The notes beneath the pieces are model-generated. The model did not search any database, was not told the DNA's origin, and was given only the letters and a program-made list of their open reading frames with translations. Position numbers and translations under genes: made by a program. Below are positions 4,551 to 63,346 of a DNA stretch of 64,000 nt, piece by piece. The stretch is from NCBI RefSeq assembly GCF_050920415.1, contig NZ_CP169309.1, one strand, 5' to 3'. The number at the start of each line of letters is the position of its first letter. Position 1 is the stretch's first letter. Origin of the DNA: Escherichia coli (GTDB lineage: Bacteria; Pseudomonadota; Gammaproteobacteria; Enterobacterales; Enterobacteriaceae).

Positions 4551-4573
4551 ACCATGACTAAAGGAAACGGCTA

Positions 4574-6197: not shown

Positions 6198-6221
6198 CTG
6201 ATAAATAAGGATATAAAAACA

Positions 6222-7196: not shown

Positions 7197-7212
7197 TCCC
7201 GAGGTACGGTCG

Positions 7213-7719
7213 ATGAACACAAAACAGTCTGTTGCTCAACTCGCCGTACCGCACCGCAAGCGCCTTTCATCCACTGTGGTGGTGGCGCTGTTACTTTGTG
7301 TGGTTGCTGGCGCGGTGATAATTAATGCCGCTGATTTTCCAGCAACTGCCATTGAAACGGATCCCGGTGCAAGTGCCTTCCCTACTTTCTATGCCTGCGC
7401 TCTGATTGTGCTCGCTGTCTTACTGGTGATACGCGATCTTTTGCTGGCAAAACCAGTCCCTTGCGCCAACGCACAGGAAAAACCGGCATTAAGGAAAACG
7501 GCAACAGGAATTGCGGCAACCGCGTTTTATATTGTGGCGATGAGCTACTGCGGTTATCTCATTACTACTCCTGTTTTCCTCATCGTCATTATGACGTTGA
7601 TGGGCTACAGGCGATGGGTACTCACACCGGGTATTGCGCTGCTGTTAACGGCAATCCTCTGGTTGCTGTTTGTCGAAGCGTTACAGGTGCCATTGCCTGT
7701 CGGCACATTTTTCGAATAA
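7213..7719 (+). CDS. tctB: TTT small membrane subunit TctB, 168 aa
   Basis: Small hydrophobic multi-TM protein between tctC-like and tctA-like genes. Confidence 0.75.
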   Translation: MNTKQSVAQLAVPHRKRLSSTVVVALLLCVVAGAVIINAADFPATAIETDPGASAFPTFYACALIVLAVLLVIRDLLLAKPVPCANAQEKPALRKTATGIAATAFYIVAMSYCGYLITTPVFLIVIMTLMGYRRWVLTPGIALLLTAILWLLFVEALQVPLPVGTFFE

Positions 7720-7731
7720 CAGGGGCCTGCA

Positions 7732-9222
7732 ATGTTTGAAAGTGAACTTTTAACTCAGGGGTTTTCGACATTACTCAGTAATCCTCAGGCGCTGCTGTTT
7801 GCCACGTTTGGAGTGATGCTGGGTATTATGATTGGCGCTCTGCCTGGCCTGACAGCGACCATGGGTGTGGCGATTTTGCTGCCTTTCACCTACGGCATGG
7901 AGCCTGTTTCTGGCTTATTGATGATTTGCGGTGTCTTTTTTGGTGGTGTGTATGGTGGTTCTATCACCGCAATTTTGCTCAAAATTCCCGGTACACCTGC
8001 CGCCGCTGCCACCGCCATTGACGGATATGAGCTGACGAAGCAGGGAAAAGCCGGGCTGGCGTTAAGTGCCGCCACGTTCTCTTCTTTTAGCGGTGGAACG
8101 CTCAGCATTATCGTATTGATGTTTCTCTCTCCGGTACTTGCCAGTTGGGCGTTGAAATTTAGTGCCTCGGAGTCCTTCGCCCTGGCAACCTTCGGGCTAA
8201 GTATTATTGCCAGTATTTCCGGTGAGTCACTGATTAAAGGGCTGATTGCCGGGGTTGGCGGATTGCTGATCGCAACGATAGGCCTTGATCCAATGGGCGG
8301 TTTTCCACGCTTTACAGGTGGATTTGTGGAGCTGATGAATGTGCCATTTATCCCGGTGATGATTGGTCTGTTTGCTGCTTCAGAAGCATTCCGCTCTATG
8401 GAGCAAAACCAGCAAATTCGTCAGGGGGCGAAGGTGGCTATCGGCAGTCTGTTACTGCCCTGGCAAACACTACGCCGCATCGCATTAACCATTTTGCGCT
8501 CATCAGGATTAGGGGTTTTTATCGGCATGATCCCCGGTGCGGGGGCAGATATTGCAGCTTTTGTTGCCTATAACGAAACTCGTCGTTTCAGTAAGACGCC
8601 TGAAAACTTTGGTAAGGGTGAGATTAAGGCGGTGGCCTCCTGTGAGGCAGGCGCGAATGGCTGCACCGGTGGCGCATTGTTACCTATGCTGACGTTGGGG
8701 ATCCCAGGCGATGCGGTAACTGCCATCATGCTGGGCGCGTTAACGTTACAAGGGATGCAGCCAGGCCCACTGATGTTTACCGACCACGGCGATATGGTTT
8801 ATACGCTGTTTGTCGGCATGATCTTTTGTTACTTCATGCTGCTAGTTCTTGGACTGCTCTCTTTGAAAGTCATCGGTAACGTGGTGAAGATCCCCGGCAA
8901 TATTCTCACGCCGATGATCCTCGCGCTTTGTGTTGTTGGGACTTATGCGCTGAACAACAGCCTGTTTGATGTTGGCATTATGCTGATTGCAGGCGTGGTG
9001 GGCTATTTCATGCAAAAAGGGGGGTATCCGGCGTCACCCGTAGTGCTGGCATTGATTATGGGGCCAATGGCGGAAAGTAATTTTCGCCGTGCGCTGTCGC
9101 TTTCAGGGGGGTCACTCGACTTCCTGTATACCCGACCGATAACCCTGGCATTGCTGACTCTGGCAGCCTTTACGCTACTGACGCCAATAATACGCAAAAT
9201 TATGCGCTTACGGCGTCAGTAA
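7732..9222 (+). CDS. tctA: TTT large permease subunit TctA, 496 aa
   Basis: About 500-aa polytopic membrane protein with Gly-rich helices, directly after tctB-like gene. Confidence 0.8.
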   Translation: MFESELLTQGFSTLLSNPQALLFATFGVMLGIMIGALPGLTATMGVAILLPFTYGMEPVSGLLMICGVFFGGVYGGSITAILLKIPGTPAAAATAIDGYELTKQGKAGLALSAATFSSFSGGTLSIIVLMFLSPVLASWALKFSASESFALATFGLSIIASISGESLIKGLIAGVGGLLIATIGLDPMGGFPRFTGGFVELMNVPFIPVMIGLFAASEAFRSMEQNQQIRQGAKVAIGSLLLPWQTLRRIALTILRSSGLGVFIGMIPGAGADIAAFVAYNETRRFSKTPENFGKGEIKAVASCEAGANGCTGGALLPMLTLGIPGDAVTAIMLGALTLQGMQPGPLMFTDHGDMVYTLFVGMIFCYFMLLVLGLLSLKVIGNVVKIPGNILTPMILALCVVGTYALNNSLFDVGIMLIAGVVGYFMQKGGYPASPVVLALIMGPMAESNFRRALSLSGGSLDFLYTRPITLALLTLAAFTLLTPIIRKIMRLRRQ

Positions 9223-11663: not shown

Positions 11664-12062
11664 ATGAGTGATATTATTTACCTGACCATAACCGGAGAAC
11701 AACACGGATGTATTTCCTCTCGTTGTGGAACGAGCACATCAATAGGTAATCGCTGGCAGATTGGTCATGAAGATGAAATCTTCGCGTTCTCGCTCTCTAA
11801 TAGTATTACGAATACAGGAAAAGGGTCACATTTGCATGGCCTTAGTTTCTGTAAGTTGATTGACAAAAGCTCCCCGTTACTTATTAACGCTATTAACAAT
11901 AACGAGCAGTTGTTCATGGAGTTTGACTTCTATCGGATCAATAGATTTGGTCGATGGGAGAAATATTACAACATTCAACTCCGCGGCGCGCTCTTATCAG
12001 CAATCAATCACCTGTTTACGGAGAACAATCTGGATACAGAAACCATCACTGTCAGTTATTAA
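11664..12062 (+). CDS. Hcp-family (T6SS tube protein) domain ORF, 132 aa, ends at TAA in frame with the downstream toxin-like ORF
   Basis: MSDIIYLTITGEQHG...GKGSHLHGLSFCKLIDKSSPLL...FDFYRINRFGRWEKYYNIQL fits the Hcp-family pattern; AT-rich. Confidence 0.7.
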   Translation: MSDIIYLTITGEQHGCISSRCGTSTSIGNRWQIGHEDEIFAFSLSNSITNTGKGSHLHGLSFCKLIDKSSPLLINAINNNEQLFMEFDFYRINRFGRWEKYYNIQLRGALLSAINHLFTENNLDTETITVSY

Positions 12063-12107
12063 TATATACTCTCCAGGCATCTGATTGCTAATACTGAATT
12101 TAGTTAT

Positions 12108-12812
12108 TTGGCATTTCCCGATAACTACAATCGTCTGTTTATACCACGGCCAAAAACTAAAGATGATAATGGCCTCAAAACACTCAATAGTAAAGCTGTT
12201 GGCAGACTGCTTGCTGCTGGCGGCATATACAATGGGAATATCGAAGGATTCAGGGAAACAGCAAACAAGTTGGGGGGAGATGCACCTGCTGGTTACGATC
12301 AAGTTATGGATAACAAAGGGTTACTCATCGCTGGTGCTTCAATAGTTGCTGGAGCAGTTCTGGGGAGAATGAGACTCCCTGATTTGGAATCACTTGAGCA
12401 TTTCGGAGCCAGAGGAGCAGTATCAGGAAGACCATTTAATCCCGACCTTGCCGGTGGTCCAATAGAAAATCTGACGACAGATGGCGTAACAATCAACAGG
12501 GAAGGTATCGCTATTGTTGAAAAACACATAGCCAGATTTGGTCATGACCCTGTAAATGAAGTGATGATCAATAGACTGAAAGACATTGAGAAAGGAAAAA
12601 TCCCCCCAGAACAAGTAGATCTTAACTTCTATACTCATGAATGTCGGGAATATCAGCGTTACTGTAATCTTGGTTGGGAAACAGGACAACCTGATGGTGA
12701 CGCAGGCTATGCACTCTGGAATCATACGCATACTGCTACTCTAGAAGATTATAAACTTAAGGGAGAACTTAATGACTTATACCACCAGGATGCACTTGAC
12801 TATGATAACTGA
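12108..12812 (+). CDS. Toxin-like C-terminal domain ORF (class undetermined), same frame as upstream Hcp ORF; 234 aa from TTG
   Basis: Same reading frame as 11664..12062 with only one stop (TAA 12060-12062) and 15 open codons between; no ATG or SD of its own. Confidence 0.6.
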   Translation: MAFPDNYNRLFIPRPKTKDDNGLKTLNSKAVGRLLAAGGIYNGNIEGFRETANKLGGDAPAGYDQVMDNKGLLIAGASIVAGAVLGRMRLPDLESLEHFGARGAVSGRPFNPDLAGGPIENLTTDGVTINREGIAIVEKHIARFGHDPVNEVMINRLKDIEKGKIPPEQVDLNFYTHECREYQRYCNLGWETGQPDGDAGYALWNHTHTATLEDYKLKGELNDLYHQDALDYDN

Positions 12813-13047
12813 AACTGAAATTAACGTACTGAAAGTTATGGCTGAGAAAGATATAAACTGGAACTGGATGAATCTCGATCGCACACTATCTATAAGGCAA
12901 ATTCCAGGATTCGGTAATGTTGTTAACATTGTTAACAAATTAGCTAACGAGGGTTTGGTTATTATTGAGGATAGCGGACATAAGTCTATGCCTCACTACC
13001 ACGTTACTGAAAAGGGATACAATCTCGTGAAAAGTGAGAATAAATAA
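12802..13047 (+). CDS. Small putative immunity protein, 81 aa
   Basis: ATG at 12802 overlaps the toxin ORF stop (ATGATAACTGA); track frame 12772..13047. Confidence 0.55.
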   Translation: MITETEINVLKVMAEKDINWNWMNLDRTLSIRQIPGFGNVVNIVNKLANEGLVIIEDSGHKSMPHYHVTEKGYNLVKSENK

Positions 13048-25668: not shown

Positions 25669-26517
25669 ATGAACAACATATTAGGCTCATCAATTAATAT
25701 GCCCTGTACACTTTTCGAAACTATTACTTTATTCGATGATTTTTCTGCTGATGATATGCAGTATGGGGATATGGAAGAACAAGATTTTCTCTCACTCGGC
25801 TTAAGCGACATCTCTGCAAAAGTTGATCCTTACCGCCTCATTAAATACCATTTTCCTGGGCCGAATTCTACTTATGGTGCTTTTAGTGTTCCAACTTCTG
25901 GAACAAAAATATCACAAAGTGAATGTATTGATATTTTATTTGCAGAAATGAAAGATCTGGCAAAAATGTTTTCCTTTTTTGGACAATACAAAACACTCAT
26001 CCAGGATCTGATTGATCATTTTAGATATGGAAATGGCAACAGTTTCCATAGCCAGGAATTGAACTTATCTTTTCATGAACGAATAAACAAATATGATTAT
26101 AATAGCCCAATACGTGTAATCAAAGAATGTATCGAAAATGATATTTCTTCAACACCTACGATAGGATACCGGCCTCTTCTCCTACAAAAGATTAAGACCG
26201 AATTACTTTCATCAAGACTAAATAAATTCAATGATTTTAAAGATAATTTTAATGGCCTGGGAATCAGCATTCATGATATCTCAGCTCAAAAAATATCTCT
26301 TTTAAATTTTCAAAAATATCCTATGGGCTGGAGCGCTACCATTCATTTCATAGCACAAGACCACTTTGGTTTGGATGTGACTGATATAAAAAACAAGATT
26401 TACAACAAGTATAGATTTTTTCGCATATGGTTCTTTTTACAACGGCATAAAGACTTTGCTTTCAAACCTTTTTTTACCAATTTTAACACTATCGAAAGAA
26501 TCGAAAATTATCTATGA
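25669..26517 (+). CDS. Hypothetical protein, 282 aa, AT-rich gene at the yigG/yigF position
   Basis: Long ORF in AT-rich DNA with a Shine-Dalgarno AAGGAG 7 nt upstream; no family I can assign. Confidence 0.6.
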   Translation: MNNILGSSINMPCTLFETITLFDDFSADDMQYGDMEEQDFLSLGLSDISAKVDPYRLIKYHFPGPNSTYGAFSVPTSGTKISQSECIDILFAEMKDLAKMFSFFGQYKTLIQDLIDHFRYGNGNSFHSQELNLSFHERINKYDYNSPIRVIKECIENDISSTPTIGYRPLLLQKIKTELLSSRLNKFNDFKDNFNGLGISIHDISAQKISLLNFQKYPMGWSATIHFIAQDHFGLDVTDIKNKIYNKYRFFRIWFFLQRHKDFAFKPFFTNFNTIERIENYL

Positions 26518-26942
26518 AAAGCAAACTCCAGAAAATTATATTATATTTATTTCTTATATGCTGCATCTATAATTTATGGACATTGCGTCCTGTACAGATT
26601 TTGTATACATACTCTGATGCTGGCAATTCAGTCTTTCTGGTCGTTGATCATCTGCCATGGACTGATAGCGATAAAATAAATTGGTATCTGAAGCATCAGG
26701 ATGAAATTAAAAGTCAAAATCCCCTACCAGAAGGTAGTTGGCATACCTGGTATGTTATTGATATCGGTAATGGCTTCACTGACTATAAAAAATATATCGA
26801 AGGGCTGTATGAAGATCTCTACTGTTTCCCGACGATTAAGAGCAATGATAATTGCATCGTAAAAAACTATTTAATGGTTATTAATGAATATCCTTACCGT
26901 AATACTCATTTTTTATTGCTGATAACAATGAGTATCAACTAA
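26514..26942 (+). CDS. Hypothetical small protein with N-terminal hydrophobic segment, 142 aa, translationally coupled to upstream gene
   Basis: ATGA start/stop overlap with 25669..26517; MKSKLQKIILYLFLICCIYNLW signal/anchor-like N-terminus. Confidence 0.6.
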   Translation: MKSKLQKIILYLFLICCIYNLWTLRPVQILYTYSDAGNSVFLVVDHLPWTDSDKINWYLKHQDEIKSQNPLPEGSWHTWYVIDIGNGFTDYKKYIEGLYEDLYCFPTIKSNDNCIVKNYLMVINEYPYRNTHFLLLITMSIN

Positions 26943-35084: not shown

Positions 35085-37112
35085 ATGCACTATCGCAATG
35101 TGGTTTGTTTGTTGTCTTTTTTAGTTCCGTCAGCGTGGGGATGCTCGCTCGGTGAACCTGATCATAATATTTACCAGAAACAGGGAAAAGGCGTGGTATA
35201 CCTGCGCCCTAATGAAGAGACAAATCTTTCGTTACCGGAAGTAAATTACCAGCGACTGCGTCGTTTACCTGATTTATTCATTGCTCCTGACACCCAGGAC
35301 GATGGGGAAAAAGAACCGCCGTTAAACGACCTTACCACCGATTATATTGATCAGGGCGCATGGGCCTGGTATCCAAATTATGCTTACTTTAGCGATGGCC
35401 GTTTTGTCATTTATGCGGGCAAGATTGTACAAAATCCATCTGGTTATCCACCGGTCGATGTAGCCTCGTTCCATTCATGGGGCGATTTTGCCGTCGATAA
35501 AAACAGCATTTATTACAAAGGCCAACGGACAGATGAAAATGGCGGCAAGCAACGCGTCGATGAAAAAACGCTGCGCAAAGTAGGATTAGGTAGCCGTTGG
35601 ATGCCTGATCGGCTGGGATTGGTGCTACGTGACGCGCATTTTCTTTATATCGATGGGCACCGTTTTGATAACCCAGAGAGTTTTTCCGTGATCGCGCAAA
35701 AATCCTGGGGTCAACAAGGGAAATTCGCTTCAACGTTTTTTCCCTGCATTGCCTACCCCTTTGGCCCGTGGGATATGCTTACCCGCACACGAACAAAGTT
35801 GCTGATCAATGGAGAGCAACTGGATGCCGATCCGGACAATTTTTCTGTCGTTCGCTGGATGCCCGGCACCCTGTTTAGCTGGCGTGATAAACACGGCGAG
35901 CATCGTAAAGTCATTGATCAGGTTCGTTTGGCAAGGAATGAAGATATATCCCGGCAATGTGACAACTTTACGCTGTTAGAAAAAAAGGTGTTCTGGCGCA
36001 AGGGGCCAGATTGTGAGCAGGAAGAATTACCCAGTCTCGACCCGGAGCAGTTTCACCCGATCAGTGACATCGTGGCGCAGTATCAGGACAAGTTGTATGC
36101 AATCAGTAAGACCCCCTTCGGTGAAAATCAGTTGGAGATCATCACCCTGGATAACCCGAATCTGATCATCAATAAACGTTTTAATGCAGGAAGGCATCAT
36201 GGCTATTTACTCACCCGATCAACAAATTGGGACGGACATGAGAAAGACGGTTTACAGGTGTTTGAATCCGTTGGCCCACTGATACTGCTGGACTACCGTG
36301 TGCCGAATGAAGCAGATGCACACCGTGGCAATAACCCGCATTACAAAAAATGGTTTGCTCGCGACGATCGTTACGTTTATGCATTCGATGGTGCGCAGCT
36401 TTGGCGTTACCCTACGCAATATCCCAAAGCGGCACGTATCAAAGCCGCTAAAGACGACTGGCTGAACGTCAGCCTTAGCCAGTTGGACGGTGAGATAATG
36501 AAAGATGGCTCATTTACTCCCACTGGCATCAAGCACACATCCTCTTTAAAACCCGCCAAGGCATACGAAGATGGGGACAATGAATCTTCATTTATCGTAA
36601 ATAAATCGGGAGTAGGCTGGCGAAAAGCGCTTTCACCCGACCTGCAATGGAGTGAGTGGCATTACCTGGAAGGCATTGATCCAAAAAAGTTTCATCTGAT
36701 TACCGAACGTATTGCACAGTACAAAAACCAACTCTACGTCGTCAGGCGCTCGCATTTTGGAGAAGATCGGCTCGAAATCATAGAGTTGGAGTCATCTTTG
36801 CCCATCAAAAATAAACCGATAAATACGGGCAAGGAGCGTCATTACTTTCTGCAAAGTACCCGACAAAAACAGGATGTGCAGGTATTCACCAGCAGCGGTG
36901 CGCTGATAGCAACGGAGCGCTTTGCTTATGACGATAGCTATGTCTACACCTGGATTGACGATCAGCTTTATCGCACACCCTCCCCCTGCCCAGCGAAAAC
37001 ATACGTCAGAGAAAAGAATGTCCGTGAAATTCATAACAGCGACATTATTATTCCGGTGACGGAGGAATCGTGCCGGAACGCAGCAGCAGACGGGCAAACT
37101 TTGAAGCCCTGA
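35085..37112 (+). CDS. Large secreted DKNYY-repeat family protein, 675 aa from ATG (685 from upstream GTG)
   Basis: Signal peptide MHYRNVVCLLSFLVPSAWGC; motif DKNSIYYKGQR; two internally duplicated segments (FHPISDIVAQYQDKLY...FGENQLEIITLD / FHLITERIAQYKNQLY...FGEDRLEIIELE); AGGA 9 nt before ATG 35085. Confidence 0.7.
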   Translation: MHYRNVVCLLSFLVPSAWGCSLGEPDHNIYQKQGKGVVYLRPNEETNLSLPEVNYQRLRRLPDLFIAPDTQDDGEKEPPLNDLTTDYIDQGAWAWYPNYAYFSDGRFVIYAGKIVQNPSGYPPVDVASFHSWGDFAVDKNSIYYKGQRTDENGGKQRVDEKTLRKVGLGSRWMPDRLGLVLRDAHFLYIDGHRFDNPESFSVIAQKSWGQQGKFASTFFPCIAYPFGPWDMLTRTRTKLLINGEQLDADPDNFSVVRWMPGTLFSWRDKHGEHRKVIDQVRLARNEDISRQCDNFTLLEKKVFWRKGPDCEQEELPSLDPEQFHPISDIVAQYQDKLYAISKTPFGENQLEIITLDNPNLIINKRFNAGRHHGYLLTRSTNWDGHEKDGLQVFESVGPLILLDYRVPNEADAHRGNNPHYKKWFARDDRYVYAFDGAQLWRYPTQYPKAARIKAAKDDWLNVSLSQLDGEIMKDGSFTPTGIKHTSSLKPAKAYEDGDNESSFIVNKSGVGWRKALSPDLQWSEWHYLEGIDPKKFHLITERIAQYKNQLYVVRRSHFGEDRLEIIELESSLPIKNKPINTGKERHYFLQSTRQKQDVQVFTSSGALIATERFAYDDSYVYTWIDDQLYRTPSPCPAKTYVREKNVREIHNSDIIIPVTEESCRNAAADGQTLKP

Positions 37113-42152: not shown

Positions 42153-43361
42153 ATGACGGAACAAGAAAAAACCTCCGCCGTGGTTGAAGAGACCAGGGAG
42201 GCCGTGGACACCACGTCACAACCTGTCGCAACAGAAAAAAAGAGCAAGAACAACACCGCATTGATTCTCAGCGCGGTGGCTATCGCTATTGCTCTGGCGG
42301 CGGGCGTCGGTTTGTATGGCTGGGGTAAACAACAGGCCGTCAATCAGACTGCCACCAGCGATGCCCTGGCTAACCAACTTACGGCACTGCAAAAAGCCCA
42401 GGAGAGCCAAAAAGCCGAGCTGGAAGGCATTATCAAGCAACAAGCTACGCAGCTTGAACAGGCGAATCGTCAGCAAGAAACGCTGGCAAAACAGCTGGAT
42501 GAAGTCCAACAAAAGGTCGCGACTATTTCCGGCAGCGATGCTAAAACCTGGCTGCTGGCTCAGGCTGATTTCCTGGTGAAACTCGCCGGACGGAAGCTGT
42601 GGAGCGATCAGGACGTCACGACCGCTGCAGCGTTGCTGAAAAGTGCAGATGCCAGCCTGGCGGATATGAATGACCCGAGTCTGATTACCGTTCGTCGGGC
42701 AATTACCGATGATATCGCCAGCCTTTCTGCGGTATCGCAGGTGGATTATGACGGCATCATCCTTAAGCTGAATCAGCTTTCTAATCAGGTAGATAACCTG
42801 CGTCTGGCCGATAATGACAGCGATGGTTCACCAATGGATTCCGACGGTGAAGAGCTTTCCAGTTCCCTCAGCGAATGGCGTATCAATCTACAAAAAAGCT
42901 GGCAGAACTTTATGGACAACTTCATTACGATTCGCCGTCGTGATGACACCGCCGTACCACTGTTAGCACCGAATCAGGATATCTATCTGCGCGAAAATAT
43001 TCGCTCCCGCCTGCTGGTCGCGGCACAAGCCGTACCGCGTCATCAGGAAGAGACTTATCGCCAGGCGCTGGAGAATGTCTCCACCTGGGTACGTGCTTAC
43101 TACGATACTGATGATGCCACCACCAAAGCGTTCCTCGACGAGGTGGACCAGTTAAGCCAGCAAAATATCTCGATGGATCTCCCGGAAACTCTGCAAAGCC
43201 AGGCGATGCTGGAAAAACTGATGCAGACGCGCGTGCGCAATCTGCTGGCGCAACCAGCAGCAGAGGCTAAACCTGCACCTGCACCTGCACCTGCACCTGC
43301 ACCTGCACCTGCACCTGCACCGCAAGCTGATACTCCGGCAGCCGCGCCGCAAGGAGAATAA
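42153..43361 (+). CDS. hemX: HemX membrane protein, 402 aa
   Basis: [48 protein letters not shown]...; C-terminal (PA)8 tract. Confidence 0.9.
43272..43319 (+). repeat. Perfect hexanucleotide tandem repeat (CCTGCA)x8 inside hemX, encoding (Pro-Ala)8
   Basis: Counted directly in sequence. Confidence 0.85.
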
Positions 43362-50565: not shown

Positions 50566-51306
50566 TCAGAGGTTGCCGGTGTAATGCCAGCGTAAATAAC
50601 GCAGCAAACGAAGCTGACGCTTAATGCGGCTCGGCTGCGAAAGCAGGCGGTAGAGCCACTCCAGCCCCAGCGTTTGCCAGATTTTCGGTGCGCGTTTCAC
50701 GTGACCGGTGAAAACATCGTAAGTCCCGCCAACGCCCATATACAGCGCTTCTGGATGCACCAGACGGCAGTCGCGCATGAAGATCTCCTGCTTTGGCGAT
50801 CCCATCGCGACGGTGACGATTTGCGCTCCGCTGGCATGAATGCGTTCAAACAGCGCCTGACGCTGCTCGGGTTTAAAATAACCATCCTGACTGCCAACGA
50901 TATTCACATTCCACTGATTGCGCAGTTTAGCTTCAGTTTGCGCCAGCACTTCAGGTTTACCGCCCACAAGAAATACCGGCGTCCCTTCTTTGCCTGCGCG
51001 CGCCATCAGCTCTTCCCAGAGATCGGCCCCGGCAACGCGGGAAACCTGCGCCTGCGGGTACTTTTTACGTACTGAACGTACAACGCTGATGCCATCAGCA
51101 TATTTAAATTCGGCAGCATTAATTAACTCCCTGACCTCGGCGTTATCTTCAATGGTCAGCATTTTTTCGGCATTAATGGCAACCAGCGTTCCCTGCTTAA
51201 GCTGCCCGTCAGCAAACAGATAATCGAGGGCGTGCTGCATATCACGCCAACCAATCAACTGTAAGCCACGCAGCGTATAGGTCGGTGCTGTGGTGTTGTT
51301 ATTCAT
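50566..51306 (-). CDS. wecG: WecG (RffM) UDP-ManNAcA transferase, 246 aa
   Basis: [31 protein letters not shown]... Confidence 0.95.
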
Positions 51307-51308
51307 TG

Positions 51309-52661
51309 TTATCCTTCAACCTGCGTCCGGAGCGATGATTTTGTACGTTTATGAATGAGTCCGGCGCTTTCAAAAAGCCAGTACAACAGTTTTGCGATCA
51401 TCAGACATGCGCCGAAGACCACGATAAAAAAGACCACGCGTGAGACAAACGAATCCAGCCCTTCACGCGCCAGCACGATCATATTGAAGATCGCCCCGAA
51501 GCAGAAACTGTGCAATATCGCAGCCTTATAGCGATTAGTTTCGCGATTGCCCAGTTCATACAGCCAGTCGAACCATTTGATGATCAGTCCAACCACAATC
51601 GCCCCGAGCGGGATGAACAACGCGCCGCCCATAACAACCAGTGAGCCTATAAGAGTAGGCGAGATCGCCAGCCCGGAGTGGTTATTCAGCACTTCCCAGG
51701 TAAAGTAGTTGGCGGAGTTCAGTACCATACTCGGGCGACCCGGCCACAGCCAGGAAGGGATAAAGACATAGAAATCGCGGACAATGGGAGCCAGGCCCTG
51801 GAAGTCGATGTTGTCGTAGTTCTGCAACAGCAATGCCAGATTCTCCCACGGCGAAAAGGTATCGCGGGTGAGATAGAGAAACGTATAGAACGCTTCATCG
51901 CCGCTCACATTCATTCCATAGCGTTTTAGCGCCAGCCAGAACATGCCCACAATCCCCAGCACGCCCGCCGCCGCCAGCATCCACAACGAAATCCAGCCGC
52001 GAATAATGCCAATAAACAGGAAGATAGCGAATGCGATGATGATATTGGCGCGAGTGCCGCCGACAATCATATAAGTCAGCAAGCCAAAGGCGACCGTGCT
52101 GACGAGGAAAAACAGCCACGCTTTGCTGTCCTGGCGCAGAAAATAAACCACCAGCATCGCCGGGATGAAAAAGTAAAAGAAACGTTTTAACGCCACGCCG
52201 GAGACTTCACTGGAGAAGATCTGACTGTAGGAGTTAAGACGGAACAGCAAAAAACCGTTGTGCATGAAGAAGATGCCGACGCTTACCAACGCAATGCCCA
52301 TCAGGATCACCCACGTGAGATTGGTCTCCACGCGGTTCATGGTAAACAGCGGACGGCGCGGTACATCAGCAACGCGTTTGCGTAGGCGGGTTTTGTAGGT
52401 GACATAGTAAACCGCGTAGAAGCAGCCCGCAGAAAGCAACGCCTGCAACAAGATTTCTGGCGGCGCAACACCAACATCAAAGCGAAATACCAGCACGCTG
52501 GTCAGCGGAAAGCCGAAGAAAAAGGTGAGCAAAAACAGCAATGAAAAGAAGACATTGAAGTTAAAGCGCACACGGCGAAACTCAAACCAGGTCAGCGTGG
52601 CAATAAACAGCGTGCAGAGCAGCCAGACAACAAACAGGCCACTGAATTGCAGCAGACTCAT
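51309..52661 (-). CDS. wzyE: WzyE ECA polymerase, 450 aa
   Basis: [31 protein letters not shown]... polytopic. Confidence 0.95.
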
Positions 52662-53737
52662 GCGACCTCCCCGGCGGCAATCGCCAATGCCCGCTGCCAG
52701 CCTTGCAGATAGTTCGGGCTAAAGAAGGCAATGGTGTTTTTATCCACCGACGCCAACTGGCGCTGCGCTTCACGCACAATATCCTCGTTGAGATCGTCGG
52801 TAGTAAACAGCACCGGCAAATGCTGTTCCGTCATATCCTGCCAGAACGGATTTTCCCGGTTAAGCACACAAGGAATACCCGCCTGAATCAGTAAGCACAG
52901 CGTACCAATGCCCTGCTGGCGGGCAAAAATAAAGTAACCGAGATCGCACTGACGAAGTAGCGCCAGATAGGCATCAAATTCCAGTTTTTCGCTCAGAACT
53001 TGCAGATTTTCTTCGCTGAATAACGCCAGCCCCGCCTGGCGAACTTCATTGATATATGCATCGTTATTGGGTGGATATCCCATAGGCACCACGACTTTTA
53101 CCGTATCGCCAAATTGCTGATGAACGGCGCGTAAGGCGGCGACATGCTCATTGCTGCGGTCACCGGAGTTCCCCACCAGAATGGTCATTTTCCCTTCACG
53201 TAGGCGATCGTTCGCCATCGTATTGAGAGAAGGGTCCATCCGCGTCGGGAAGTACAGCAGTTCGCCCCGCACCTTTGGATGCGTTTTGGCAAAAAAACTC
53301 AAATCACCGCGGGTGGCAAATACACAGCCGACTCGCTTTTGCGCCAGACGGCGCAGCGGATAAAAAAGCTTATATCTCAAGCCACTGGAAAGCTCATACA
53401 GGTCTGCCCCCCAGATATGCCAGAAAAACTGGCTGGGCTTAATGCCACCACTCAGCAGAGCCAGCCACAGTTTGGGATTGAACTGACCGTGGAAAAAAAA
53501 TCGCTGCTGACGGTTAGCTTTTGCTTTCGCGATGACCGCTTCCGCCAGCGATTTTTTCCCAGGGAAAAATTGCACAGAAAGCGCCGGACAGCTATCACTT
53601 AAGCCGTCGTCCTTGCCAACAACCATAAACTCGCGCGCGTGCTCGCTCGTCGCGGCCAGCGCGTCGTTGAAAAACCGCAGAACGGTTTGGTTATGGTGAG
53701 GGATATCCGATCCCAGTACGTGAATCAGTACAGTCAT
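52658..53737 (-). CDS. wecF: WecF (RffT) 4-alpha-L-fucosyltransferase, 359 aa
   Basis: [33 protein letters not shown]... Confidence 0.95.
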
Positions 53738-54984
53738 GCCCGCCTACGCCAGAGTAAAAACACGCCACAACAAAGAGAAAAATAGACGATATAGGTTGCC
53801 ATATAGGCCTGCGCCGCGCCCAGTGCACCATGCGCAGGGATTAGCCAGTGGGCAAATACCATCAATAAAGTGAACTGGCTGACTTCCGCCAGAATATAAA
53901 ACCGCAGTGACGCTTTGGCGATCACCAGATAACCAAAGACATAAGCGCCCACTTTTAACACATCACCCACTAACTGCCAGGCAAAGAGATCGCGCATAGC
54001 GGTAAATTTATTCGACAACAGCAGCCAGATAGCAAAATCACGCAGCAACCAGACGGTAAAACTCGCCGCCGCCACTGCCGGTAAGACGAATTTCAGCGAT
54101 TTAACCACTTCCCGGGTGATATCGCGCTTTTCCGTTAGCCGCGACAACGTGGGCAGCAAATATACGCTGAACGATGCCGTAATAAATTGCAGGTAGGCAT
54201 CGGAAATACTGCTCACCCCTTGCCAGATCCCCACTTCATCCCAGCTATACTGCGCCGCCAGCAGTTTACGCATCATGATGTAAGCAACGGGCAAGGTCAC
54301 CGACGTAATCAACGCCATGAGCGTAAATTTGCTCAACTGCCCTGCCAGGCCGTTATCCCAGCTGGGTTTCAGATAGCTTAACGGGATGGCACCACGTTTG
54401 ATCAACATGATGACGGCAGGAATCACCACCAGCGCGGGAATCAACGCCAGCCCCAGCAACGCCCCTTCATAACCACCCAAACGGTAACTGACGTAGTACG
54501 CGAGAACGCCAATCAAGCTGCCGACAATCAGCGATAACGCATTACCTGCGGCATCGCGAAAGCCTTTCATCAACGCCAGTAACAGGTTGCCCCAGGCGAT
54601 CCCCATTTGCACCAACGCCACTAAACGCACCAGCCCCTGATAGTCGGTATTACCAAACAATCCCTGGCTAATTGGCGCTGCCGCCAGCACAAAAACCAGC
54701 GCCATCAGCGTAGAGAAACCAAGCACCATCGCTGATGAAGTGCCGACCACGCGACGCAGCTGCTGCGGATTATCATGGTACTGAGCAACGTATTTGGTTA
54801 CGCCATTAAAGATGCCCGCCCCGGCAAGCACGCCGAGCACGGTAATCAACTGGCGGAAATTTGCCGCCAGCCCAAGCCCCGCCGGACCAAATGACACCGC
54901 CAGCAACTTACCGACCAGTAACCCTGCACCAATCTTGACCAGTGTACTGGCCGCCGTCCATAAGGACGCTTTTGCCAACGACAT
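53734..54984 (-). CDS. wzxE: WzxE ECA lipid III flippase, 416 aa
   Basis: [39 protein letters not shown]... Confidence 0.95.
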
Positions 54985-54985
54985 A

Positions 54986-56116
54986 TCAGGAGAAGTAATT
55001 CAACAAGGTCGCAATTACCGTACGCTGATTGACGGGCGACAGGTTGTAGAACAGCGGCAGGCGCAGCAGGCGCTCGCTCTCTTTGGTGGTGTAGCGATCT
55101 TCACCGTGGAACTCACCAAAGCGTTCCCCCGCAGGGCAACCGTGCAGCGGAATGTAATGGAACACCGCCATGATTTCCGCTTCTTTCAGAAAGTTAATCA
55201 ACGCGCTCCGGTCATCAATATCCCGCAGTTTAATGTAGAACATATGCGCGTTCTGCACGCAGCCATCGGGAATCGACGGCAGCTCGATACGCCCGGCTTT
55301 CGCCAGAGGTGCTAACGCATCGTAGTAGTTTTGCCACAGCGCCAGACGTTGCTGATTGATACGATCCGCTGCTTCCAGTTGCGCCCACAGGTACGCGGCT
55401 TGCAGATCGGACATCAAATAGCTGGAGCCAATATCGCGCCAGGTATATTTATCAACCTGACCACGGAAGAACTGGCTGCGGTTAGTCCCTTTTTCACGGA
55501 TGATCTCGGCTCGTTCGATTAACGCTTTATCGTTAATCAGCGTCGCGCCGCCTTCACCGCCCGCCGTGTAGTTTTTGGTTTCATGGAAGCTAAAGCAGCC
55601 AATATGACCAATGGTTCCCAGCGCACGCCCTTTATAAGTGGACATCACGCCCTGAGCGGCATCTTCCACCACAAACAGATTATGCTTTTTCGCCAACGCC
55701 ATAATGGTGTCCATTTCGCAGGCCACACCCGCGTAATGCACCGGCACGATAACGCGCGTTTTGTCAGTGATCGCCGCTTCAATCAGCGTTTCGTCGATGT
55801 TCATGGTGTCCGGGCGAACATCCACAAAGACGATTTTCGCGCCACGCAGCACAAAGGCATTGGCGGTGGAGACAAAGGTGTAGCTCGGCATGATCACTTC
55901 ATCGCCAGGCTGGATATCGAGCAGCAGCGCCGCCATCTCCAGCGAAGCGGTGCAGGATGGTGTCAGTAACACTTTGGCGCTGCCAAAACGTTGCTCCAGC
56001 CACTGCTGGCAGCGACGGGTAAAACCGCCATCCCCACACAGTTTGCCGCTACCCATTGCCGACTGCATATAGTCGAGTTCGGTTCCCACCACCGGCGGTG
56101 CGTTAAATGGAATCAT
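54986..56116 (-). CDS. wecE: WecE (RffA) TDP-4-keto-6-deoxyglucose aminotransferase, 376 aa
   Basis: MIPFNAPPVVGTELDYMQSAMGSGKLCGDGGFTRRCQQWLEQRFG... Confidence 0.95.
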   Translation of the reverse strand: MIPFNAPPVVGTELDYMQSAMGSGKLCGDGGFTRRCQQWLEQRFGSAKVLLTPSCTASLEMAALLLDIQPGDEVIMPSYTFVSTANAFVLRGAKIVFVDVRPDTMNIDETLIEAAITDKTRVIVPVHYAGVACEMDTIMALAKKHNLFVVEDAAQGVMSTYKGRALGTIGHIGCFSFHETKNYTAGGEGGATLINDKALIERAEIIREKGTNRSQFFRGQVDKYTWRDIGSSYLMSDLQAAYLWAQLEAADRINQQRLALWQNYYDALAPLAKAGRIELPSIPDGCVQNAHMFYIKLRDIDDRSALINFLKEAEIMAVFHYIPLHGCPAGERFGEFHGEDRYTTKESERLLRLPLFYNLSPVNQRTVIATLLNYFS

Positions 56117-56120
56117 GTGA

Positions 56121-56795
56121 TCACCTATATAACCAGTACGCGGTGCTTTCTACATTCGCACCACTTTGTATGTATCGTTTAAGCGCGGCGGTGTTGCCCA
56201 TCTGGGTCGCCACCCGCAAAGTTGTTTTACCGCGAGCATACGCCCAGTTTAGCGCTGTTTGCATCAGCTCAGCACCTGCACCGCGTCCAGCCAGCAGGCC
56301 AATTCGCGCATCTGTCGCATTGAGTTCCCGTAAAGAGACATAGCCGCGAATATCGCCGGACGCCGAACGTAAAATGAGGCATTGATGATCAAAGGTGCCG
56401 CGCACGGCATTTTCAACCCACTGCGCATAAAAGCGACCGCTGGCGTCAGGCGCATACCACGGCGCACGAAAACGGCTTTGCGCAAATGCGGCACTGGCTA
56501 ACTCACGTAATACGGGAATATCTGTCTCTTGTGCCACTTCTGCGCCGCTATCACTGACATTGTTCACGGGTAGCGCCAAATCAACTTCACCTTCAACCAG
56601 GCAGAATCCCAGCTGTTGCAAGGCATCCAGCTCAACAGTATTTGATGCAGCAATTTTGGCCTGCACTCGTGACCACGGCGCTAACGCGTCTGGCGTCAGG
56701 AGTGGCGCATCAGGAGTGATGCGCACGATAGCGCTGTTAACGCCAAAGAAGGCATTTTCCCAGGCTAGTGGTTCAATACTGGCGCGGACGGGCAC
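56121..56795 (-). CDS. wecD: WecD (RffC) TDP-fucosamine acetyltransferase, 224 aa
   Basis: [28 protein letters not shown]...; GNAT fold C-terminus. Confidence 0.9.
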
Positions 56796-57654
56796 GGAGT
56801 AACTCCAGCAGATATTGGCCGTAGCCAGTTTTCGCTAATGAACTGGCAGCACGCTTCACACCTTCGTCATCGAGCCAGCCGTTACGCCAGGCAATCTCTT
56901 CCAGGCAGGCAATCTTAAAGCCCTGGCGTTTTTCCACCGTCTGTACAAAGGTACTGGCTTCAATCAGGCTGTCGTGTGTGCCGGTGTCCAGCCAGGCAAA
57001 TCCGCGCCCGAGCAGTTCAACGGTCAGGTTGCCTGCCTCAAGGTACATCTGGTTGATGGAGGTAATCTCCAGTTCACCACGCTCCGACGGCTTCACCTGC
57101 TTTGCGTACTCCACAACTTTACTGTCGTAGAAATAAAGCCCGGTCACCGCCCAGTTTGATTTTGGCTGTTTTGGCTTTTCTTCCAGAGAGATAGCGCGGA
57201 AATTGTCGTCAAACTCCACGACGCCAAAGCGTTCTGGATCCATTACCTGATAGCCAAATACCGTCGCCCCTTGCGTGCGCGCCGCAACATGACGCAGCTT
57301 CGGACTGAAGCCCTGTCCGAAGAAGATGTTATCGCCCAGCACCAGACAAGAAGGTTCACCGTTGAGGAAGGTTTCACCGATGATAAAGGCCTGCGCAAGA
57401 CCGTCCGGGCTGGGCTGTTCGGCATATTCCAGCTGGATACCGAACTCACTACCATCGCCCAGCAGGCGCTGGAAATAACCTTTATCTTCCGGCGTAGTGA
57501 TGATGAGAATTTCGCGGATACCGGCCAGCATCAGCACCGACAGCGGATAGTAAATCATTGGCTTATCGTAAATCGGCAACAGTTGCTTCGATACGCCGCG
57601 CGTAATCGGATGCAATCGGGTGCCGGAACCGCCCGCCAGGATAATACCTTTCAT
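56773..57654 (-). CDS. rffH: RffH glucose-1-phosphate thymidylyltransferase, 293 aa
   Basis: [57 protein letters not shown]... Confidence 0.95.
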
Positions 57655-57750
57655 GTTTGCCTCCGCTGAGAATTAGCCGTTCAGACCTAAACGCTCACCC
57701 TGATAGCTGCCGTCCTGCACCTGCTTCCACCAGCTTTCATTAGCCAGATA

Positions 57751-58740
57751 TCACTGCACTGTTTTACGCATTCCACTTTCAAAGGTTTCCTGCGGCAGCC
57801 AGCCAAGTTCACGGGCAATTTTCGAAGCATCAATGGCATAGCGCAGGTCATGCCCCGGACGGTCAGCGACAAAAGTGATCAGATCACGATAGTGCGCCAC
57901 ACCGTGCGGTTTATTCGGGGCCAGTTCTTCCAGCAGCTCGCAAATGGTTTCCACAACCTCGAGATTCTTACGCTCGTTGTGACCACCAATATTATAGGTT
58001 TCACCGACTTTCCCGGTGGTCACCACGCAATACAGCGCGCGGGCATGATCTTCAACATATAACCAGTCACGGATTTGCTGCCCATTGCCATATACCGGCA
58101 GCGGTTTACCCGCCAGCGCGTTGAGGATCATCAGCGGGATCAGTTTTTCCGGAAAGTGGTAAGGACCGTAGTTATTAGAGCAGTTGGTGATTAACGTCGG
58201 CAGGCCGTAGGTCCGCAGCCAGGCGCGCACCAGATGGTCGCTGCTTGCTTTTGAAGCAGAATAAGGGCTGCTCGGCGAATACGGCGTGGTTTCGGTGAAG
58301 AAATCATCTGTGGAATGCAGGTCACCGTATACTTCGTCGGTGGAGATATGATGAAAACGGAACGCCGATTTTTTGTCTTCTGCCAGCGCATTCCAGTAAG
58401 CCCGCGCCGCTTCAAGCAGTGTATAAGTCCCGACAATGTTGGTTTCGATAAACGCTGCCGGGCCGTCAATAGAACGGTCAACATGGCTTTCAGCTGCCAG
58501 ATGCATGACGCAGTCTGGCTGATGTTCTGTGAAAACACGCGCCAGTTCTGCCCGATCGCAGATATCAACTTTCTCAAAGGCAAAGCGATCGCTTTGCGCA
58601 ACCGGTGCCAGCGACATCAGGTTTCCGGCGTAGGTCAGCTTATCGACCACCACCACCGCATCGTTCGTCTCGTTGATGATATAACGCACCAGCGCCGAGC
58701 CAATAAACCCGGCACCGCCTGTTATCAGAATCTTTCTCAT
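57751..58740 (-). CDS. rffG: RffG dTDP-glucose 4,6-dehydratase, truncated by in-frame TGA (329 aa); frame stays open 25 more codons to TAA at 57673-57675
   Basis: [24 protein letters not shown]...GMRKTVQ then TGA; downstream in-frame YLANESWWKQVQDGSYQGERLGLNG then TAA, placed just before the rffH SD. Confidence 0.85.
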
Positions 58741-60002
58741 TAGCGCCACACTCCTTTGGCATCGACGACATACTGCTGATGGACGTTGTCGCCATTGATA
58801 ACTTTGAACTGACTATGATCGACCAACATCACCAGCACATCTGCCGTTGCCAGCGCCTCGTCAAGCTGCGCCAGAGTACAAAGCCCATTCAGTTTGTTCG
58901 GCAACTGGTGAATGTTAGGCTCAACAACCAGCGTTTCGCCGCTGTGCCACTGAGCGATCAATTCAGCGATTTCCATCGCCGGACTTTCGCGCAGGTCATC
59001 AATATTCGGTTTAAACGCCAGACCAAAACAGGCAATTTTCAGCTCACTGGCGCGTTTATCGGTAGCGGCCAGGCAGTCGGCAACCGCCGCTTTGACCTGA
59101 TCAATCACCCAGAACGGTTTGTGATCGTTTACTTCACGCGCGGTACGGATAAGCCGCGCCTGCTGCGGATTCTGTGCCACGATAAACCACGGATCAACAG
59201 CGATGCAGTGACCACCCACGCCAGGGCCAGGTTGAAGAATATTGACGCGAGGGTGACGATTCGCCAGGCGAATCAGTTCCCAGACGTTAATCCCCTGATC
59301 GGCGCAAATCAGCGACAGTTCGTTAGCAAAAGCGATATTCACATCGCGGAAGCTGTTCTCGGTGAGTTTACACATTTCCGCCGTCCGTGAGTTAGTGACG
59401 ACACACTCACCTTCGAGGAAAATTTTGTACAGTTCGCTGGCACGGGCCGAACAAACCGGCGTCATACCACCAATCACGCGATCGTTTTTAATCAGCTCGA
59501 CCATAACCTGGCCCGGTAACACGCGTTCCGGGCAGTAAGCAATGTTGACGTCCGCCTGCTCGCCCACCTGCTGTGGGAAAGTCAGGTCCGGACGCATCTC
59601 TGCTAACCATTCTGCCATCTTCTCGGTTGAACCCACCGGCGAGGTGGACTCAAGGATCACCAGCGCGCCTTTTTTCAGCACTGGCGCAATGGAGCGAGCA
59701 GCCGATTCAACGTAAGCCATATCAGGCTCATGATCGCCTTTAAACGGCGTGGGTACAGCAATCAGCCAGGCATCCGCTTCAACCGGCGTCGTGCTCGCTC
59801 GTAAAAAACCGCCTTCTACGGCAGTTTTTACTACGCTCGCCAAATCAGGCTCGACGATATGGATTTCGCCACGATTGATGGTATCAACCGCGTGTTGGTT
59901 GATATCAACACCAATCACCTGTTTTTGCCGGGAGGCAAACGCTGCCGCCGTTGGCAGTCCAATGTAACCCAGTCCAATGACAGAAATGGTCGCAAAACTC
60001 AT
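58740..60002 (-). CDS. wecC: WecC (RffD) UDP-ManNAc dehydrogenase, 420 aa
   Basis: [43 protein letters not shown]... Confidence 0.95.
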
Positions 60003-61129
60003 AGTGATATCCGATTATTTTTTAACGCTTCCAGAATGCGAGAGCATGCCTGACCATCACCATACGGGTTATGGGCGCGGCTCATGGTTTGATATTCGTT
60101 TTCGTCTTTTAAAAGACGCGTCACTTCCTCGACGATTCGCTGCTTATCCGTGCCGACTAGACGCACCGTACCCGCCTTCACTGCTTCCGGACGTTCAGTG
60201 GTTTCACGCATCACCAGCACTGGTTTCCCCAGCGAAGGCGCTTCCTCCTGAATGCCACCTGAATCGGTCAAAATCAGCCAGGCGTGGTTCATCAGCCAGA
60301 CAAACGGTAAATACTCCTGAGGATCGATCAGAATGACATTTTTCACGTGCCCCAGAATGCGATTGACCGGCTCTCTGACGTTCGGGTTGAGATGCACCGG
60401 ATAGACAATCTGGATGTCCTGGTGCGTGGTGGCGATGTCTGCCAGCGCATGGCAGATTTCTTCAAAGCCACGACCAAAACTCTCACGTCTGTGACCGGTC
60501 ACCAGAATCATTTTTTTATCAGGGTCGATAAACGGATAATTTGCCGCCAGTTCTGAACGCAGCGTATCGCTGCTCATCACCTGGTCACGCACCCATAACA
60601 GTGCATCAATAACGGTATTACCGGTAATGAAGATTCGGCTGTCAGCAACGTTTTCACGCAGCAAGTTTTGCCGGGACGTTTCGGTTGGAGAGAAATGATA
60701 CATCGCCAGATGCCCGGTCAATGTACGATTTGCCTCTTCCGGCCACGGCGAATAGAGATCGCCCGTGCGCAGACCAGCCTCAACGTGACCAACAGGAATA
60801 CGCTGATAAAACGCCGCCAGACTGGTTGCCAGCGTCGTCGTCGTATCGCCGTGAACCAGCACGACGTCTGGTTTGAATTCGGCAAGAATAGGTTTTAGCC
60901 CTTCCAGAATCCGACAGGTTATCTCTGTCAGACCCTGTCCTGGCTGCATTATGTTGAGATCGTAGTCAGGTACAATGGAAAAGAGTTTCAGCACCTGATC
61001 GAGCATCTCCCGATGCTGCGCAGTGACGCAAACTTTAGCCTCAAAAAAAGGATCTTTTGCCAACGCATGCACCAACGGCGCCATCTTGATGGCTTCCGGG
61101 CGCGTACCAAATACAGTCAGTACTTTCAC
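59999..61129 (-). CDS. wecB: WecB (RffE) UDP-GlcNAc 2-epimerase, 376 aa from GTG
   Basis: Track frame to 61171; start set at GTG giving [23 protein letters not shown]...; avoids overlap with wzzE. Confidence 0.9.
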
Positions 61130-61184
61130 ATCGATTCTCTTCGAATAAGCGGCGAGCGCCTTTGCGCTCACCGCAGCAGTGTTG

Positions 61185-62234
61185 CTATTTCGAGCAACGG
61201 CGGGTTAATGCGACACCAGCCCCGATCAGCCCCCCGACAATGCCCCACATAATCATCAGGAAGGCACGACGTGGGCTATCGCGTTTTACCGGTTCTTCCG
61301 GCGTACGCAAATAGCGATAGGTCTGAAAACGCGGATCCAGGGTTGGACCAACATTCAGGGTGTTTAACATGGCCCGATTCTGATCATAGTCGAGATCAAA
61401 GGCCGGACCGACGGCCTGTAAATTTTCCAGTCGCGCCTGGAGCATTGGACGCCCAAGCAGGAACATTTCTGAATCAGGTAGTTCCTCGGCAGGTACATCT
61501 GTCGCACTGCGCGAAATATTATGCTGCTCAGCAATTTTCAGCGCCTGTTCAATGCTGTTCATCCGGCGGTCGTAGATGGCTTTCGCCACTTCTTCCTGAC
61601 GCTTCACCTGAGCTTTCATCTGGATGGTACGCGCCGCCCATGCGCCTTTCAGCTCATCATTCAGATGGCTGGCTGCTCGTTGGCTGGCAAACGCAACATA
61701 CTGACGTAACAGGTTATTAGCGTCAGGCGCGGTTTCGGCAATCAGCTTAACGCTATCATTGACCGCACGCGTGAAGTCACCGGGAATAAACACGATGTTG
61801 TTAATCATTTCATCCAGCAACGCCGCATCGGCTTTGCTGTTCCCGACCATCCGCTGTTTGTAATAGTCTGTCTGCAACCAGAAATCGCGGCGGGTATCCC
61901 ACGAGGCCAGTTGCATAACAAACTCTTTATAGGCTTCATCCATGACCGATGGTTGGTCGGCAGAAGCCATGTTCGAACGGACGTCCAGGTTACGCAAGAA
62001 TTGCTGCTGCGAGTAGTATCCTCCCAGCATATTCACTGTTGGACGATCGGTAATCGCCGTCGAGCTCCACTCCTGACGAGCAAAAAAAGTATACGCCAGC
62101 GCGATTAACGCAAACGCCAGCCCCATGCCAATAATCCACAGCTTCCCAGCCCACAAGGTACGAAACAACCCACGAATATCCAGTTCATTTTCAGCGTCTT
62201 CGGCCGGTTTCCCAGGCATTGGTTGTGTCATCAC
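61185..62234 (-). CDS. wzzE: WzzE ECA chain-length regulator, 349 aa
   Basis: [41 protein letters not shown]... Confidence 0.95.
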
Positions 62235-62242
62235 ATCCTCAT

Positions 62243-63346
62243 TTATTTGGTTAAATTGGGGCTGCCACCACGATTTCTACGCAGTCTGCGTTTTACGCGC
62301 TTAATAAAGCGAGCAACTTTCCAGGCACGCTTAATGCAATATCCATAGAGGAAGAATGCTAGCAAAAAGAGCACCAGCATGACCCATTCCGGGACAAAAT
62401 GAGAGTATTCTGCCAGCACGCCAATTGAAGCGAGCAGTGCTGCGGCAAGGGTAATCAGCACAAACGCCTGGCGGGAAGTAAACCCGGCACGCATGATCAA
62501 ATGGTGAATATGCTGACGGTCAGGAGAGAATGGGCTCATGCCTTTACGCAGGCGACGGTACATAATCGCCACCATATCCATTAGCGGAATGGCGATAATC
62601 CATAATGCAGTAACCGGGCTTATTGGGTGCGTTTTTCCCTGAGTCGTTTCGAGCAGGATCCAGATAACGGTAAAACCAATCAGCGTACTGCCCGCATCAC
62701 CCATAAAGACTTTGTAGCGGCGACCCAGGATACCAAGGTTGAGCATGATATAGGGCAGGATGGCGGCGATCATCGCAAAGCACCAGATAGCGAGGCTGGT
62801 TTGCCCGTCGAACCACAAAATCATACCGATTGCTGCAAACGAGACGCAGGACAACCCGCCCAGCAAGCCATCAATGCCATCAACCATGTTGAAAGCATTA
62901 ATTGCCGCCCAGACGGCAAATAGCGTCAGGAAGTAGCCAAACGGTCCGAGCACCATCTCCCAGGAGCCAAAGATATAACCCAGGCTACTGAGATAAAGTT
63001 TGCCGAACACCATCATAACAATGCCAACAGCGGCCTGTATGGTGGCACGGATTTTTACGCTGATATCAAAACGGTCATCCAGCGCACCGATGAACACAAG
63101 CACACCGGCACAAGCGAGATAGAGAGATGCATGCGGAATATAATAATCGACAATTCCGAACGTGAAGCAAATCCCTGCGTAAACCGAAATACCCCCAACG
63201 AGAGGTATCAATCCCTGGTGACGTTTGCGGAAGTTAGGTTTATCCACTAAACCGACTTTTTTTGCTACCTTTCGGGCAAAAAACAGAAACAGTGTCGTGA
63301 ATAAAAAAATACTGATGAGATCAGTACTCACTGTCAGTAAATTCAC
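62243..63346 (-). CDS. wecA: WecA (Rfe) UDP-GlcNAc:undecaprenyl-phosphate GlcNAc-1-P transferase, 367 aa
   Basis: MNLLTVSTDLISIFLFTTLFLFFARKVAKKVGLVDKPNFRKRHQG... Confidence 0.95.
   Translation of the reverse strand: MNLLTVSTDLISIFLFTTLFLFFARKVAKKVGLVDKPNFRKRHQGLIPLVGGISVYAGICFTFGIVDYYIPHASLYLACAGVLVFIGALDDRFDISVKIRATIQAAVGIVMMVFGKLYLSSLGYIFGSWEMVLGPFGYFLTLFAVWAAINAFNMVDGIDGLLGGLSCVSFAAIGMILWFDGQTSLAIWCFAMIAAILPYIMLNLGILGRRYKVFMGDAGSTLIGFTVIWILLETTQGKTHPISPVTALWIIAIPLMDMVAIMYRRLRKGMSPFSPDRQHIHHLIMRAGFTSRQAFVLITLAAALLASIGVLAEYSHFVPEWVMLVLFLLAFFLYGYCIKRAWKVARFIKRVKRRLRRNRGGSPNLTK

Follow-up and report, generated by a model that had tools for sequence, protein, structure and literature searches.

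The rffG locus

The window, a stretch of 64,000 nucleotides from Escherichia coli, carries the wec operon for ECA on its minus strand. The nearest complete genome, which also holds the nearest full-length rffG allele, was NZ_CP169399.1 of strain MFDS1022581, referred to below as the sister genome. The features of the locus that are needed for the analysis are given here by position in the window.

50566..63346, minus strand: the whole wec (ECA) operon, wecA-wzzE-wecB-wecC-rffG-rffH-wecD-wecE-wzxE-rffT-wzyE-wecG; coordinates mapped from the sister genome comparison
58740..60002, minus strand: wecC, intact by sequence; its stop shares 1 nt with the rffG ATG (TAATG)
57751..58740, minus strand: rffG (rmlB-ECA) in its truncated form, 329 codons followed by the premature TGA; NAD and catalytic motifs kept, NF007582 score 762.6 against a cut-off of 698
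57751..57753, minus strand: premature TGA at codon 330, with the derived base A at 57751 (T on the plus strand) in place of the ancestral TGG (Trp), from comparison with the sister allele and from probes
57673..57750, minus strand: orphaned 3' remnant of rffG, 25 sense codons plus the ancestral TAA, identical to the wild-type sister allele
57655..57672, minus strand: rffG-rffH intergenic spacer with the rffH Shine-Dalgarno sequence GGAGG, read from the sequence
56773..57654, minus strand: rffH (rmlA-ECA; annotated rfbA), intact and the same as in the sister genome by comparison

The ancestral extent of rffG is 57673-58740 on the minus strand. The gene starts at an ATG at 58740 and is interrupted at codon 330, after 329 sense codons, by an in-frame TGA (57751-57753). 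Past this TGA the frame continues for 25 sense codons (YLANESWWKQVQDGSYQGERLGLNG) to the ancestral TAA (57673-57675), which lies 18 nt 5' of the rffH ATG (57654); the rffH Shine-Dalgarno sequence, GGAGG, is found at 57660-57664. A first-pass annotation of this DNA had reported both the premature TGA and the 25-codon continuation to a TAA just 5' of that Shine-Dalgarno sequence, and both were confirmed in frame on the minus strand. The loss of the last 23 residues that was given there was an underestimate; 26 residues are removed (W330 and the 25 that follow it), which leaves 329 of 355 amino acids. Since the 78 nt after the TGA have the wild-type sister sequence, the 3' remnant of rffG has undergone no further decay.

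Comparison with related genomes

Over the 1068 nt of rffG there was one difference between the window and MFDS1022581, a G to A change at nt 990 (window base 57751) that converts TGG (Trp330) to TGA. This result bore out the earlier proposal of a G-to-A nonsense change at a Trp codon. Codon 330 is TGG in MFDS1022581, N96 and K-12; the window gene differed from that of a K-12 derivative at 53 positions, and K-12-type RffG is 355 aa long with Trp at position 330 (PDB 1BXK). The possibility that reference rffG genes also end at the window's TGA was therefore discarded, as the references encode 355 aa and have TGG at this codon. With a 301-nt probe that surrounds the stop, matches were obtained in 5,307 complete E. 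coli genomes, none of them with 100% identity; the best two matches were at 99.7% (one mismatch).

The rffG base was the only substitution relative to MFDS1022581 in 26.6 kb spanning the wec operon, which outside this base was identical to the intact operon of that strain. When the comparison was extended to approximately 63 kb, 5 SNPs were found in total, including the rffG base, together with one 1-nt indel and one 12-nt in-frame repeat difference in hemX; in addition, IS2 was found in MFDS1022581 only. Because a single base separates the two rffG alleles and the sequence that follows the TGA is that of the intact allele, the change is derived and recent; all the other wec genes are intact.

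The remaining SNPs relative to MFDS1022581 were located at 3116 in rmuC, at 4731 in the 2-dehydro-3-deoxygalactonokinase gene, at 10188 near the start of udp and at 24914 in rarD. The hemX difference, at 43271-43282, is an additional 12-nt in-frame tandem repeat (ACCTGCACCTGC) in the window, a repeat-number polymorphism in the repetitive part of the gene.

Other features of the window

An Hcp/TssD gene (11664-12812, plus strand) runs on in frame into a C-terminal extension of some 250 aa, annotated in the sister genome as an HNH endonuclease fragment, and looks like an Hcp-toxin fusion. The fusion gene carries a single in-frame TAA (12063-12065), and the small ORF downstream of it (12772-13047) could be an immunity gene. 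The MFDS1022581 fusion has the same internal stop plus an IS2 insertion, which is absent from the window (junction at 12217-12220).

Three inserts that are not known from the K-12 gene order were observed. The insert between rmuC and udp (about 3780-9220) encodes a tripartite tricarboxylate transporter of the TctABC type together with an IclR-family regulator, an aldolase and a 2-dehydro-3-deoxygalactonokinase. The one between lptM and cyaY (about 35085-37112) encodes a hypothetical protein of 675 aa for which Pfam gave no hit, and the insert between rarD and corA (25669-26942) consists of a DUF3289/DUF943 pair.

Distribution of the allele and strain background

The exact 329-aa product had already been deposited and was found in a 15-billion-protein collection as EGE62346.1 (E. 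coli STEC_7v) and OTB62989.1; it was encoded on 12 contigs examined. TGA-bearing DNA that was 100% identical to the window over 4-16 kb was recovered from Logan SRR17144073, Logan SRR058106 and NCBI GCA_002965625.1 (contig PTRQ01000021.1), and in the regions compared (16-21 kb each) no carrier dataset differed from the window. Rarity was assessed with a 41-mer centred on the mutant base, such that each 28-nt megablast seed must span that base. None of 5,426 complete E. coli genomes was matched by this probe; the control 41-mer with G instead of A matched 3,979 of them, and a recurrent or widespread allele was rejected on this result. Among the data queried, the TGA allele is confined to the 7v clone.

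The window is placed in the clone of bovine strain 7v (STEC_7v) by the name on the protein record that it matched and by its identity with SRR058106 and GCA_002965625.1. Strain 7V, obtained from faeces of healthy cattle, is of serotype O2:H25 and carries stx2g (PMC3491183, Table 1; accession AEXD00000000). It is described as an 'Escherichia cryptic lineage 1' strain in work by Leonard et al. (2016), here as it appears in reference 26 of PMC6449507. The wec region of the window was 3.9% divergent from that of K-12, a value that fits what would be expected of a divergent lineage.

A DUF943-family gene (26514-26942, plus strand), which stands after the DUF3289/YPO3983-family gene between rarD and corA, encodes 142 aa in the window compared to 165 aa in the sister genome. 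The shortening is caused by a 1-nt deletion in a T-run, with the indel at about 26909. The same 142-aa allele was present in GCA_002965625.1 and in Logan SRR6061338 (on a contig common to 9 samples), both of which were 100% identical to the window. Because the allele recurs in these two datasets, a 454 artefact was rejected as the cause of the frameshift, which is a second real truncating mutation in the 7v clone. GCA_002966065.1 (PTRO01) carries the intact DUF943 allele of the lineage. Used as a second marker, the frameshift fits both several isolates and one strain that was resequenced, as the carriers were all identical to the window where compared.

Consequences for the RffG protein

The truncated protein keeps the GGAGFIG NAD motif (residues 8-14), TDE (134-136) and YSASK (160-164), and it scores above the NCBIfam cut-offs of NF007582 (762.6 vs 698 bits) and TIGR01181 (521.6 vs 365.1). 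Full-length RffG covers all 321 positions of TIGR01181; the truncated form covers positions 1-309 and loses 310-321. The conserved C-terminal WYxxNxxW segment is missing from the 329-aa protein, and with it the complete fold of dTDP-glucose 4,6-dehydratases; the residues lost include W330, Y331, N334 and W337.

The sequence W-Y-L-x-N-x-x-W, with which the lost segment starts, was conserved in all five of the solved dTDP-glucose 4,6-dehydratases that matched best (1BXK, 1G1A, 8DU1, 2HUN and 1KEP). In an alignment of 115 roughly full-length representatives, taken from a library clustered at 50% identity, Trp330 was present in 99 members, Tyr331 in 89 and Trp337 in 73, so that the description of the replaced residue as a conserved Trp was upheld. 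Residue 341 or further was reached by 105 of the 115, and the only member that ended before residue 330 was a fragment. Residues 342-355 form a variable tail, which many members of the family lack. The truncation thus takes away a conserved part of the RffG fold and, given the loss of this C-terminal segment, the 329-aa protein is probably impaired, either destabilised or weakened.

The K-12 counterpart (RffG or RmlB-ECA, dTDP-glucose 4,6-dehydratase 2; PDB 1BXK; NF007582) occupies the same place in the operon, between wecC and rffH. The DNA of the two is 96% identical over a 6.3-kb region, and the proteins share the same NAD and catalytic motifs. In contrast to the 355 aa of K-12 RffG, the window allele encodes 329 aa and is without Trp330, the WYLANESWW segment and the tail.

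As a result of the early stop, the untranslated gap 5' of the rffH ATG is extended from 18 to 96 nt, with a base content of 33 G vs 18 C. Polarity on rffH was judged unlikely: since rffH has its own GGAGG Shine-Dalgarno sequence and the G-rich 96 nt would load Rho poorly, any effect on its expression through Rho or through coupling is expected to be small.

The rfbB paralogue

The dTDP-4-keto-6-deoxy-D-glucose that RffG supplies to the Fuc4NAc branch of ECA is also the product of RfbB/RmlB. The second enzyme, which is encoded in the O2/O50-type rfb cluster, carries out the same reaction as RffG and was interchangeable with it by experiment, and the redundancy between them is at least partial (Marolda & Valvano 1995, cited by the ECA review PMC7439462). 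Single rffG or rfbB deletions in Salmonella were without the round cells, small colonies and bile/antibiotic sensitivity of the double mutant (PMC12136496). In E. coli, rffG/rffH insertions were near-neutral when rfbA/rfbB were present; with the rfb region deleted, their fitness was indistinguishable from lethality, an effect that the authors attributed to accumulation of ECA lipid II (bioRxiv 10.1101/2022.05.17.492023). Loss of rffG was thus near-neutral in the presence of rfbB both for transposon insertions in E. coli B long-term evolution lines and for a delta-rffG mutant of Salmonella Typhimurium. These knock-outs are engineered nulls, some of them with polar potential, whereas the window allele is a natural, late point nonsense mutation that may keep partial activity. 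Because the knock-outs were near-neutral with rfbB, the natural allele is predicted to be tolerated in an rfbB-positive O2 strain.

Complete E. coli genomes had a median of two rffG-like places, and two were found in MFDS1022581. The second of these, a paralogue at a separate locus outside the window, was read in the sister genome as an intact 361-aa rfbB that heads an O2/O50-type cluster with the order galF-rfbB(361 aa)-rfbD-rfbA-fdtA-...-wzx(O2/O50)-GT-rfbC-wzy(O2/O50). This cluster type agrees with the O2 serotype of 7V. The exact O2/O50 Wzx protein of MFDS1022581 has also been deposited as EGE64821.1, a record that shares its accession block with the RffG of STEC_7v and is probably from STEC_7v. 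Among the matches listed (23 contigs read), an intact 361-aa rfbB was located upstream of the exact wzx in 3/3 loci; exact-protein look-ups of the MFDS1022581 RfbB and Wzx returned no TGA-carrier sample among the matches listed.

The rfb region lies outside the window, and rfbB was assigned to the clone indirectly, from its serotype, the near-identical sister genome and the accession block, which together argue strongly for an intact rfbB in the TGA carriers. The presence of rfbB in the O-antigen cluster would very probably make the rffG truncation harmless. The suggestion in the first-pass annotation that the stop is a real strain polymorphism tolerated via an rfbB/rmlB paralogue is therefore well supported by the O2:H25 serotype, the intact rfbB of the sister genome and the published knock-outs.

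In the rfb cluster of MFDS1022581 (NZ_CP169399.1; locus L010, 43528-43974), the acyltransferase gene between the fdtA-like ketoisomerase and the fdtB-like aminotransferase genes is split in the annotation into two fragments of a pseudogene. An intact 155-aa acyltransferase gene stands at this place in other genomes that have this O2/O50 cluster.

Alternative explanations

The errors of 454 Titanium sequencing are homopolymer indels rather than substitutions. The genome of isolate 7V was sequenced on this platform (PMC3491183) and the Logan SRR058106 assembly does carry two homopolymer indels elsewhere, both of which would favour a true G at this position, an intact rffG and a TGA introduced by sequencing or assembly. 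However, the rffG change is a substitution and not a homopolymer indel, and the same base was reproduced in three or more datasets that had been assembled separately (SRR058106, SRR17144073 and GCA_002965625.1) and in two GenBank protein records (EGE62346.1 and OTB62989.1). Because identical DNA is present in separate assemblies that were separately deposited, sequencing error, which had been offered as one source of the TGA, is effectively excluded. More weight, within an overall verdict of unlikely, is given to an origin of the mutation in a 7v laboratory stock rather than as a natural polymorphism, since the match of all carriers to the window in every compared region would fit one strain sequenced many times. 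Two observations count against such an origin, neither of them conclusive: the neighbouring accessions GCA_002965625.1 (PTRQ01) and GCA_002966065.1 (PTRO01) may come from one batch of related isolates, and the 12 contigs with the allele have accession numbers that suggest deposits years apart.

The mutation would also be effectively silent, with no need for a paralogue, if the lost segment were dispensable and the 329-aa RffG were still an adequate enzyme. Retention of the NAD, TDE and YxxxK motifs, scores that still pass both family cut-offs and the variability of residues 342-355 would all be consistent with such an enzyme, but its adequacy is doubtful given the loss of W330, Y331, N334 and W337, the first of which is so widely conserved in the representatives and in the best-matching structures, and given that no roughly full-length member among the 115 stops before residue 330. 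Decoding of the UGA is a further means by which useful RffG might be made. Of the stop codons in E. coli, UGA is the leakiest, and it can be decoded by near-cognate tRNA-Trp, which here would put the original residue back into a frame that is intact downstream. UGA-U is not known as one of the leakiest contexts. Any leak would be incidental and small. No SECIS-like or readthrough structure 3' of the UGA was detected by folding of the 106 nt that begin just ahead of the UGA and reach to the rffH start, which folded no better than shuffled sequence (z = +0.89; 165/200 shuffles folded at least as well). The flanks are identical to Trp-encoding wild-type alleles, which argues that nothing has evolved to promote recoding, and the UGA was absent from all other genomes tested. 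Selenocysteine insertion with a SECIS element and programmed readthrough were rejected on the folding result and on this absence, and the tRNA-Trp readthrough raised in the first-pass annotation gained no specific support. Useful full-length RffG made by programmed readthrough, selenocysteine insertion or tRNA-Trp suppression is consequently considered highly improbable; a trace of the full-length protein may arise through incidental decoding by tRNA-Trp.

Proposed explanation and significance

The reading preferred here, to which a probability of about 0.8 is assigned, is a recent, clone-restricted rffG nonsense mutation (G990A, Trp330 to UGA) in the 7v clone that is buffered by the O-antigen RfbB and leaves the downstream wec genes normal. 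RffG translation would end 26 codons early, to give a 329-aa product that retains the NAD-binding and catalytic motifs, lacks WYxxNxxW and is probably destabilised or weakened. The truncation would be tolerated because the O2 rfb cluster encodes a second dTDP-glucose 4,6-dehydratase; RfbB/RmlB would supply dTDP-4-keto-6-deoxy-D-glucose to WecE, WecD and RffT, and with this supply no toxic build-up of ECA lipid II would be expected. The downstream wec genes would be expressed normally, in view of the strong rffH Shine-Dalgarno sequence and the G-rich 96 nt.

It is improbable that the truncation is other than neutral, through either an activity of the 329-aa RffG that does without the C-terminal segment or a selected loss of RffG in a cattle-associated cryptic-lineage-1 clone. 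If the 329-aa protein were active, the minimal fold of the enzyme family would be redefined. If loss of RffG were selected, it would indicate a changed sharing of dTDP-sugars between two users of dTDP-4-keto-6-deoxyglucose, ECA and the O2 antigen.

On the preferred explanation, rffG is a redundant gene and the TGA in it an ordinary nonsense polymorphism of recent origin. The gene, the enzyme, the paralogue and the conditional dispensability of rffG were known before, and GenBank already lists the truncated allele under the same name as an intact dTDP-glucose 4,6-dehydratase; a literature search on rffG pseudogenes in Escherichia found no description of the TGA allele. The rffG coding sequence in genomes of the 7v clone deserves a truncation flag, and base 57751 provides a clean marker SNP for the clone. 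ECA synthesis in the 7v clone is probably dependent on rfbB, and deletion of rfb should be unusually harmful in this background.
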